Virus record (IMG/VR): IMGVR_UViG_3300010391_001881
Source: a virus
DNA: 15,702 nucleotides
Reading direction: 5' to 3' (one strand)
In this document: piece by piece, positions 2,198-2,832 of the stretch
How the letters are laid out: every line of letters begins with the position of its first letter
Position numbering within the stretch: position 1 is the first letter of the stretch
Made by a program: the position numbers and the translations under genes
The notes under the pieces: generated by a model
The model's input: only the letters and a program-made list of their open reading frames with translations
Database searches by the model: none
What the model was told of the DNA's origin: nothing

Positions 2198-2788
2198 TCA
2201 AGGACTTTCGCGGCCCCAACCATTGCATTCAGAGCACACGATAATTTTTCTTCTCTTACGAAAAGAGCAACCCTTCGGAAGAAGGTGGTGACCATCATTC
2301 TTATATGTCAGTTCACCAAGACCTTTGCACCTGCGGCACGGCTTACATCCTTCTTCCTCTGCGTGAATAGCTTTTATTCTTAAGAACTCCTCGGGATTAT
2401 AGTACAAAAGCCTCGCTCGATACTTCATTATAAAATAGAATTCCGTAAAATCCCCTTCGCTTACCCACTCCCAATAGTTCGAGGGATCTTCTCTCAAATA
2501 AACGGCAAAGACATACTTTCCGCCCATGGCGATCGCCGAATCCAGATGAGGAGTAAGATAGGATCCTGTTTTCAGCCCGCCTCTCAAGATCTCTTTGTAT
2601 CCTCGTCTTGTGGTGCCATGGTACCAAATACTCAAAATCACTCCTTTCAGACCAAAAGAAGATCCGATGCTTCTTCTAAACCCTGAGTAATGTTGCTCTC
2701 TTATAACTGATGCTCTTTTTTTTATCGCATTTTGCCGAAGAGAAAGAGCAACAGATTGAGCCCAGAAGGATTTGAACCTTCGACCCAC
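2198..2788 (-). CDS. Tpt1/KptA-like (RNA 2'-phosphotransferase, ADP-ribosyltransferase fold) protein lacking the N-terminal domain and carrying a C-terminal CxxC...CxxC zinc ribbon; possible pseudogene
   Basis: IREQHYSG...WYHGT...GLKTGSYLTPHLDSA matches KptA IRAVQGHS...LYHGT...GLIAGERHYVHLSAD. The GTG start lies inside tRNA-Lys(CTT) and there is no in-frame ATG/GTG/TTG after the tRNA. Confidence 0.45.
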   Translation of the reverse strand: MGRRFKSFWAQSVALSLRQNAIKKRASVIREQHYSGFRRSIGSSFGLKGVILSIWYHGTTRRGYKEILRGGLKTGSYLTPHLDSAIAMGGKYVFAVYLREDPSNYWEWVSEGDFTEFYFIMKYRARLLYYNPEEFLRIKAIHAEEEGCKPCRRCKGLGELTYKNDGHHLLPKGCSFRKRRKIIVCSECNGWGRESP

Positions 2789-2832
2789 TGCTTAAGAGGC
2801 AGTTGCTCTAGACCAGACTGAGCTATGAGCCC
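2757..2832 (-). tRNA. tRNA-Lys (anticodon CTT)
   Basis: Acceptor GGGCTCA/TGGGCTC, D arm GCTC-AGTCTGGTCTA-GAGC, anticodon stem ACTGC/GCAGT, loop CTCTTAA, T loop TTCAAAT. Confidence 0.8.

Follow-up and report, generated by a model that had tools for sequence, protein, structure and literature searches.

A 15,702-nucleotide stretch of viral DNA, IMG/VR record IMGVR_UViG_3300010391_001881 (the window, taken at its full length), carries on its minus strand a small gene for a protein whose nearest relatives of known structure are the RNA 2'-phosphotransferases Tpt1/KptA, enzymes that combine an N-terminal winged-helix RNA lobe with a C-terminal lobe that uses NAD+. Tpt1 structures from the Shuman laboratory reportedly reveal a catalytic tetrad, Arg-His-Arg-Arg, three residues of which lie in the N lobe. 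In PMC9503650, Aravind's classification of ADP-ribosyltransferases (ARTs) recognizes H-Y-[EDQ] as one ART pattern and H-H-h as the KptA pattern; the H-Y-[EDQ] enzymes form a macromolecule-modifying clade, and those with Q are counted among its active families. PMC9503650 and PMC7824862 connect phage KptA genes with tRNA repair, and the former describes KptA- or sirtuin-centred phage RNA-repair neighbourhoods that consist of the same parts as occur near the gene family considered here, namely macro, cREC and HAD_SAK components.

The 145-residue protein encoded in the window most likely begins with a minimal ART fold (residues 1-80) that is closest to the NAD+ lobe of Tpt1/KptA and carries a PARP-like triad, H6-Y26-E56. 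A predicted zinc knuckle follows at the C-terminus. Judged by its sequence, the protein falls outside Tpt1/KptA, since the lobe and the tetrad that define this group are missing; it represents a putative new, very small family of the ART superfamily. No description of an ART combined with a DnaJ/anti-TRAP knuckle was found in the literature searched, as far as the available parts of these sources extend. As for its activity, we moderately favour a mono-ADP-ribosyltransferase that would be active and co-expressed with the phage tRNAs.

The predicted ADP-ribosyltransferase domain and its zinc knuckle

Searches with the single sequence returned weak signals, linking residues 3-33 to RNA 2'-phosphotransferase and the C-terminus to the BSD2/DnaJ Cys-rich domain. 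An exhaustive HMMER search then extended the family to 304 cluster representatives at E<1e-3, 81 of them below 1e-10, and an AF2 model built on 66 members from this search reached a pLDDT of 96.6 and a pTM of 0.85 (the pLDDT was 40 with only two sequences). The model displays the split beta-sheet ART fold that characterizes the H-Y-[EDQ] clade. Against the PDB, Foldseek ranks A. pernix Tpt1 first (probability 1.0), with BSD2 for the C-terminal part, and the best match in BFVD is a 107-residue phage 'PARP catalytic domain' protein. A profile of the N-terminal domain retrieves ten Tpt1 sequences at E 0.005-0.05, followed by PARP10 and PARP16.

A first-pass annotation of this locus, made from the DNA letters, had proposed a remodelled ART or RNA 2'-phosphotransferase that lacks most of the N-terminal RNA-binding lobe of Tpt1 and ends in a Cys4 zinc module foreign to Tpt1. 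The Tpt1-like ART fold, the missing lobe and the added module were all recovered; the phosphotransferase part fared less well, there being no Arg-His-Arg-Arg tetrad and a triad of the form H-Y-E/Q, not H-H-h.

Scores on existing domain models are low. Among the 66 members, Pfam PARP responds to 22 (best E 6e-4) and PTS_2-RNA to five, all sub-threshold. The window protein has no match to Pfam PARP (PF00644) at E values up to 10, and on the Tpt1 models it obtains 11.3 bits with Pfam PF01885 (cut-off 26) and 11.4 with NCBIfam NF002013 (cut-off 231). PADLOC models found no match in the window, and PHROGs gave chance-level matches to the Cys region only. The sole family member to reach the PTS_2-RNA cut-off is P0056 (26.0 bits for a cut-off of 26; PARP 25.2), a metagenomic protein of 426 residues in which two tandem minimal ART domains stand behind an N-terminal region with a HELLH (HExxH-like) motif. 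Apart from this duplication, domain fusions in longer relatives provided no functional clue.

Conservation was counted over about 155 homologs. His stands at position 6 in 152 of 154, and the G7 and T8 that follow it hardly vary. Position 26 carries an aromatic residue in 145 of 157, most often Y (112), then F (18) and W (15). G38 never varies and G39 scarcely does, W55 is kept in 153 of 156, and position 56 admits only E (67) or Q (88). The first-pass annotation had singled out the YHGT and G-L..G..Y motifs, and these are indeed the most conserved part of the family. By AF2 secondary structure, H6 on strand 1, Y26 on strand 2 and E56 at the beginning of the strand behind the ARTT-like loop stand where the H-Y-[EDQ] pattern expects them. 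In the profile alignment, Y26 stands where the VHLS motif of Tpt1 has its His, and the four-residue segment bearing the catalytic Arg of the Tpt1 C-lobe (GRRLK / GRQY) falls opposite a gap in the family profile, the nearest basic position being K/R22, which is 66% conserved. We take the spacing Y26...A34...[M/F/Y]37 to mirror that of Y896...S904...Y907 in PARP1. As read from the alignments and the model, the backbone and the first beta-alpha-beta unit of the domain are Tpt1-like and its triad is PARP-like, and of the features that make Tpt1 a 2'-phosphotransferase none appears to be left.

The C-terminal module is a predicted one-zinc knuckle as in anti-TRAP. Its four Cys are invariant wherever the domain occurs (about 90 members), and its Gly are more than 94% conserved. 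The Cys pairs had been recognized at first pass as a zinc ribbon; the pairs are present, and they belong to two CxxCxGxG motifs of DnaJ/anti-TRAP type, not to a classical ribbon. Pfam BSD2_CRD matches the window protein at E 0.001-0.003, while DnaJ_CXXCXGXG and Anti-TRAP match 59 and 35 of the 66 members, respectively, below threshold; PDB matches of the knuckle are 6ekb, 1exk and 3lcz, and include BSD2 and DnaJ. The 26-residue insert between the two repeats bears a subfamily motif, Y-P-D-D-G-H-H-L-L-P (generalized as Y-x-x-D-G-H-H-L-L-P, with DGHHLLP in common). Knuckles of the DnaJ and anti-TRAP kind are protein-binding modules in known examples.

At 50% identity the family amounts to about 300 clusters, every member of which stems from a metagenome or a viral contig. 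None is named or has a precomputed Pfam ART domain, and there is no Pfam model for the family. A tblastn search of 50,697 deposited phage genomes with three members gave no match, nor did a scan of viral contigs with the single protein, and 185,579 species genomes yielded three contigs of metagenome-assembled genomes only, probably phage fragments. Homologs without the zinc knuckle are complete open reading frames (ORFs) of 100-140 residues, mostly with Q56. The isoelectric point (pI) of the family is near neutral, with a median of about 6.

Gene limits and the tRNA-array setting

The longest ORF at this locus runs over 2198-2788 on the minus strand (196 residues) from a GTG at 2788 that lies 32 nt within tRNA-Lys(CTT), with only tRNA sequence upstream of it. 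The first-pass annotation had correctly reported both features and their overlap; it had gone on to claim that this GTG is the only start. Two in-frame starts are in fact available past the tRNA: a GTG (2641-2639), where the source's own gene call begins (P0001, 147 residues), and a TTG preceded by a Shine-Dalgarno-like sequence (Table 1). The nearest homolog, P0002 (148 residues, 48-49% identity), opens with MTTWYHGT, which aligns with MSIWYHGT read from the TTG, and on its contig, L001, an in-frame TAA stands three codons before the ATG and tRNA-Lys is absent from this place. About 155 homologs reach the start of the profile, and the large majority (about 80%) have at most six residues ahead of it; in no relative is an extension across the tRNA conserved. 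The homolog starts, the TAA in L001 and the family-wide N-termini together place the gene at 2198-2635, as an intact coding sequence (CDS) read from 2635 to 2198, and mark the tRNA overlap as an artefact of longest-ORF calling. A long ORF starting inside the tRNA is ruled out by the homolog N-termini and by the downstream in-frame starts. Prediction of an RNA fold or terminator in the 121-nt spacer between tRNA and gene was not significant (z -1.5).

It had also been suggested that insertion of tRNA-Lys removed the front of a Tpt1 gene; in this remnant or pseudogene reading, translation could alternatively start inside the tRNA. The GTG within tRNA-Lys and the resemblance to the Tpt1 C-lobe alone would fit such an event, to which we give next to no credence: by the homolog comparison it is refuted, since the short two-domain architecture starting at [WY]HGT is the family norm and ancestral to its about 300 clusters. 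In addition to the two proper starts, one with a Shine-Dalgarno sequence, and to the TAA of the closest homolog, the 304 cluster representatives show strong purifying conservation. The same spurious extension arises in L018, on a 436-kb phage contig, where the longest ORF runs back into a different upstream tRNA, tRNA-Tyr. An 'R-x-Q-H-S' signature of Tpt1 read at residues 30-35 of the long ORF falls in the spacer and is a chance match with no counterpart in the homologs. For annotation, the lesson from the window and L018 is that calling the longest ORF beside a tRNA produces spurious overlaps between the two genes.

The window is a dense tRNA island with 19 tRNA genes, all on the minus strand (ARAGORN; 19 of 19 confirmed by Rfam). 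The ART gene ends directly against one of them, the junction between its stop codon and tRNA-Ala reading CCTTGA followed by GGGGCTGTAGCTC. Full-length genes, encoding both ART domain and knuckle, are located directly inside tRNA arrays in seven of about 12 cases, and the gene of L018 is the sole CDS in the tRNA run that holds it. At L012 the tRNAs are 2.3 kb off, and of 13 homologs without the zinc knuckle a single one has any tRNA closer than 6 kb. The association covers two protein subfamilies (25-45% identity) and is not universal.

Table 1. Positions of the ART-zinc-knuckle gene, its parts and neighbouring features in the window and at homologous loci
Feature	Location	Strand	Remarks
Predicted CDS	2198..2635	minus	145 codons + TGA; TTG start 2635-2633; alternative GTG 2641 gives 147 aa
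Minimal ART domain (predicted), residues 1-80	2396..2635	minus	candidate triad H6 (2620-2618), Y26 (2560-2558), E56 (2470-2468)
Linker helix, residues 81-95	2351..2395	minus	helix 81-94 in AF2 model
DnaJ/anti-TRAP/BSD2-type knuckle, residues 96-145	2201..2350	minus	predicted single zinc; Pfam and PDB matches
CxxCxGxG motifs C100/C103 and C134/C137	2338-2327 and 2236-2225	minus	
Shine-Dalgarno-like AAAGGAG	2641..2647	minus	5-nt spacer to TTG start; read from sequence
Spacer from tRNA-Lys to gene	2636..2756	minus	non-coding, 121 nt; no homolog has a counterpart extension
tRNA-Lys(CTT)	2757-2832	minus	ARAGORN; Rfam RF00005 67.7 bits; 121 nt upstream of real start
tRNA-Ala(TGC)	2125..2197	minus	ARAGORN and Rfam; 0 nt between the gene's TGA stop and the tRNA
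Permuted-tRNA-like element	~1654-1733	minus	not called by ARAGORN or Rfam
tRNA with anticodon CTA	6206-6278	minus	ARAGORN 'tRNA-Pyl'
Cpn10/GroES homolog	7160-7483
TARG1/OARD1 (C6orf130)-type macro domain	7471..7893	minus	Pfam Macro; human OARD1 E 5e-27; DarG macro E 4e-6
189-aa ORF	9813-10382	minus	may be a homing endonuclease
Overlapping ORFs	10426-10809	both	includes ORF 10426-10650 (minus), may be an integrase remnant
847-aa protein	10792-13335	minus	Major Vault Protein shoulder, Vault_3 and SPFH/Band-7 matches
Thymidylate-synthase-like	13534-14445	minus	metabolic run 13534-15666
Isochorismatase/nicotinamidase-like	14473-15090	minus	metabolic run
DHHA1-domain phosphoesterase	15100-15666	minus	metabolic run
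L001, permuted-tRNA-like element	~3815-3905	plus	45 nt upstream of the ART gene, which lies in the array
L001, macro domain	4682-5104
L001, tRNA with anticodon CTA	6675-6749
L004/5, ART gene			tRNA-Gln 17 nt upstream
L004, PcfJ-like gene	1528-2907
L006/7, ART gene			tRNA-Gly overlaps the gene's 3' end by 10 nt
L008/9, ART gene			tRNA-Gly 0 nt past stop
L018, array (436-kb IMG/VR contig)	5051-10853		22 tRNAs + tmRNA within 6 kb
L029, ART gene			17-tRNA array; tRNA-Thr 30 nt downstream

Two unusual tRNA elements accompany the array. One is the permuted-tRNA-like element, about 0.5 kb downstream of the ART gene in the window, whose parts follow the order anticodon arm (GTC), T arm, 3' acceptor CCTCGGC-A, a 6-nt linker AATCAT, 5' acceptor GCCGAGG and D arm; L001 has a similar one (TCTCCCT...AGGGAGA plus D arm). 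As a general partner of the family the permuted tRNA was discarded, being restricted to the window and L001, and a simple scan of L002-L016 found none. The other is a tRNA with anticodon CTA, of amber-suppressor type and conserved in the window and L001, which suggests that TAG may be reassigned in part of the phage genome; within the window, genes read normally in the standard code. This tRNA prompted the idea of stop-codon recoding to lengthen the ORF, which is irrelevant here: the in-frame stop upstream is a TAA within the anticodon loop of tRNA-Lys, and the gene's own stop is TGA.

A macro domain and a permuted tRNA had both been noticed near the gene at first pass, and both are there. The macro gene, of TARG1/OARD1 type, is 4.8 kb upstream of the ART gene in the window. 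Its counterpart in L001 is 68% identical and comes 285 nt after the ART gene, with one small gene between, and in both contigs a Cpn10/GroES homolog follows the macro gene. The small genes flanking the L001 ART gene have no counterparts beside the ART or macro genes of the window, and no macro domain appears among the Pfam annotations of L004-L008 genes or in the scanned neighbour subset of L018 and L029. A cREC gene is located 4-5 kb downstream in L004 and L006, and the L018 array is flanked by HAD_SAK_1, a 'Swiss-army-knife' RNA-repair phosphatase, and a DUF559 endonuclease. Genes for anti-Pycsar Apyc1 and PcfJ-like proteins are present in L004-L008: the PcfJ-like protein (PF14284, 445-459 residues) is adjacent to the ART gene or one to two small genes away in L004, L005, L007 and L008, four loci of one phage lineage, and Apyc1 is 1-2 kb off in L006 and L008.

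The window itself is assigned to a huge-phage lineage on the strength of its predicted 847-residue protein, because this protein, with its Major Vault Protein shoulder, is 45-48% identical to proteins of the uncultured phages LR756500/1/3 (462-735 kb). The remaining genes include a metabolic run, whose nicotinamidase-like member could be tied to NAD+ turnover, and a region with overlapping ORFs on both strands. One of the latter contains '...LLRHSSYGTTMNIYRH...', resembling the C-terminal catalytic motif of tyrosine recombinases, and may be an integrase remnant. The 189-residue ORF combines tandem basic repeats of the type 'QTPEFKA / KTPEYKAK' with an HNH-like C-terminus (...WQIDHI...NLQPLW..DN..K) and is possibly a homing endonuclease that borders the tRNA array.

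Candidate activities and acceptors

In the mono-ADP-ribosyltransferase mechanism that we propose, H6, Y26 and the G38-G39 loop would bind NAD+, and E56 (E or Q in the family) would position the nicotinamide ribose; nicotinamide would then depart and a single ADP-ribose would be moved onto a macromolecular acceptor, recruited by the zinc knuckle that takes the place of the Tpt1 RNA-binding lobe. Because the 19 tRNAs share one strand and tRNA-Ala begins right behind the stop codon, the mRNA is probably part of a polycistronic tRNA transcript, from which RNase P and other tRNA-processing cuts would free it; with an RNase P cut directly past the stop codon, the enzyme would be produced together with the phage tRNAs. 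The nearby TARG1-type macro protein could act as eraser or as self-protection. One candidate acceptor is a protein belonging to the host's translation or tRNA-targeting-defence machinery, an option that we hold to be just short of an even prospect and that is favoured by membership in the H-Y-[EDQ] clade, by the protein-binding type of the knuckle and by the near-neutral pI. A phosphate or hydroxyl of RNA or tRNA is a realistic if weaker candidate, favoured by the affinity to Tpt1, residence in tRNA arrays and neighbours of RNA-repair type. What these two acceptors leave falls to readings as an NADase, a decoy or an inactive protein.

Several observations weigh against an active enzyme tied to the tRNAs. 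The position that should be catalytic holds Q in more than half of the family, possibly indicating weak or altered chemistry. The window protein stays below threshold on every Pfam ART model, and no characterized close homolog emerged from the tblastn search of phage genomes with three members. The near-neutral pI argues against generic RNA binding and says nothing on activity. With regard to the setting, the surroundings of L011, L017, L032/33 and L014 are free of tRNAs over about 5-10 kb, and the array cases are not phylogenetically independent, L004-L009 being syntenic relatives. The macro, cREC and HAD-SAK genes are 0.3-5 kb away and not strictly operonic. Finally, tRNA arrays also gather mobile genes (PD-(D/E)XK and DUF559 endonucleases), and the location may mirror insertion hot spots instead of a function.

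These facts leave room for other activities. The protein might be an RNA enzyme analogous to KptA that removes 2'-phosphates or ADP-ribosylates 5'- or 3'-phosphate ends of tRNAs, in tRNA repair or permuted-tRNA maturation, with the knuckle replacing the winged-helix lobe and macro, cREC or HAD-SAK proteins clearing ADP-ribose by-products or healing ends. We regard this as rather unlikely. Three methods agree on Tpt1/KptA as the nearest relative of solved structure, the gene sits directly in tRNA arrays in at least two protein subfamilies, and permuted-tRNA-like elements lie close by in two contigs; that last link is limited to the window/L001 lineage, and no RNA ligase was found in the window. 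The E/Q interchange would suit an acceptor that can do without a general base, for instance phosphate, and K/R22 precedes Y26 by four residues, like the C-lobe Arg before the VHLS His in Tpt1, but K/R22 is not invariant, the segment of this fourth Arg aligns to a gap, and the whole family lacks the N-lobe, where Tpt1 has three of its four catalytic residues. The knuckle is of a kind that binds protein in known examples, and the median pI of about 6 points the same way. Macro, cREC and HAD_SAK_1 match components of phage NAD+-dependent RNA repair described in PMC9503650; the macro domain at hand is of TARG1/DarG type, not a dedicated Appr1p phosphatase, and Tyr in place of the second His is, in that same source, a feature of the macromolecule-modifying clade. 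The fuller version of the idea is more doubtful again: a single-lobe functional KptA analogue, kept in tRNA arrays and acting directly on tRNA, with macro, cREC and HAD-SAK completing the cycle. Such an enzyme would help to repair tRNAs that host anticodon nucleases have cut, by taking off 2'-phosphates or by capping phosphate ends with ADP-ribose, and in the window/L001 lineage it would also serve ligation-dependent maturation of permuted tRNAs.

A use without transfer is improbable. The domain could be an NAD+ glycohydrolase, a decoy that binds NAD+ or ADP-ribose (for example against a defence signal), or a dead scaffold with a functional knuckle: at 80 residues it is extremely small, Q replaces E in 88 of 155 homologs, some loci have anti-defence neighbours (Apyc1), and the isochorismatase of the window, nicotinamidase-like, hints at NAD+ turnover. 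The NAD+-contacting set (H-G-T, the aromatic residue at 26, GG and W-[EQ]) is nonetheless strictly conserved, and position 56, always E or Q and never hydrophobic, argues for a functional polar contact; ARTs of the H-Y-[EDQ] pattern that bear Q are among the active families in PMC9503650. For the favoured transferase, its recurrence within tRNA arrays of large and huge phages suggests an NAD+-dependent step linked to phage tRNA supply, tRNA repair or translation takeover, an area for which tRNA genes alone are currently the main explanation.

Comparison with known systems

Writer-eraser pairs such as DarT-DarG and TARG1 systems offer one parallel: in L001 the ART gene is followed by one small gene and then by a TARG1/DarG-type macro gene. 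In the window the ART and macro genes are 4.8 kb apart. For the C-terminal module, the likeness to DnaJ, BSD2 and anti-TRAP consists of the two CxxCxGxG motifs with invariant Cys and conserved Gly, and the predicted single zinc site per chain is that of anti-TRAP. DnaJ and BSD2 have four such repeats, against two here, and in the DnaJ family the knuckle is carried by J-domain proteins, whereas here it is fused to a putative enzyme domain and contains the 26-residue insert.

With Tpt1/KptA the protein shares a strand-helix-strand motif, [LW]YHGT...I...G...[YH][FL][ST]..LE.A...G, and presumably the use of NAD+. The two-lobe architecture of Tpt1 is not found: the window protein starts three residues ahead of the HGT strand, and the winged-helix RNA lobe and the Arg-His-Arg-Arg tetrad are missing. 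Compared with the H-H-h pattern, the fold and the HGT motif are retained, while Tyr replaces the second His, E/Q occupies the third position where Tpt1 has a hydrophobic residue, and the C-terminus carries an additional zinc knuckle.

The PARP-type or H-Y-[EDQ] clade (PARP10/15/16, the diphtheria-toxin group and minimal phage proteins such as UniProt A0A6J7WWK7) resembles it in the H-Y-E triad and in PARP-like spacing, and homologs of 100-140 residues without the zinc finger resemble the phage 'PARP catalytic domain' class. Within this comparison the family differs in that E is often Q, a DnaJ-type knuckle is fused, and no member reaches the Pfam PARP threshold. Cellular PARPs have much larger catalytic domains with a helical regulatory domain, in contrast to the 80 residues here, which include none. 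If active, the protein would contain one of the smallest ART catalytic modules known (about 80 residues), and it would be the first reported ART fused to a DnaJ/anti-TRAP zinc knuckle.

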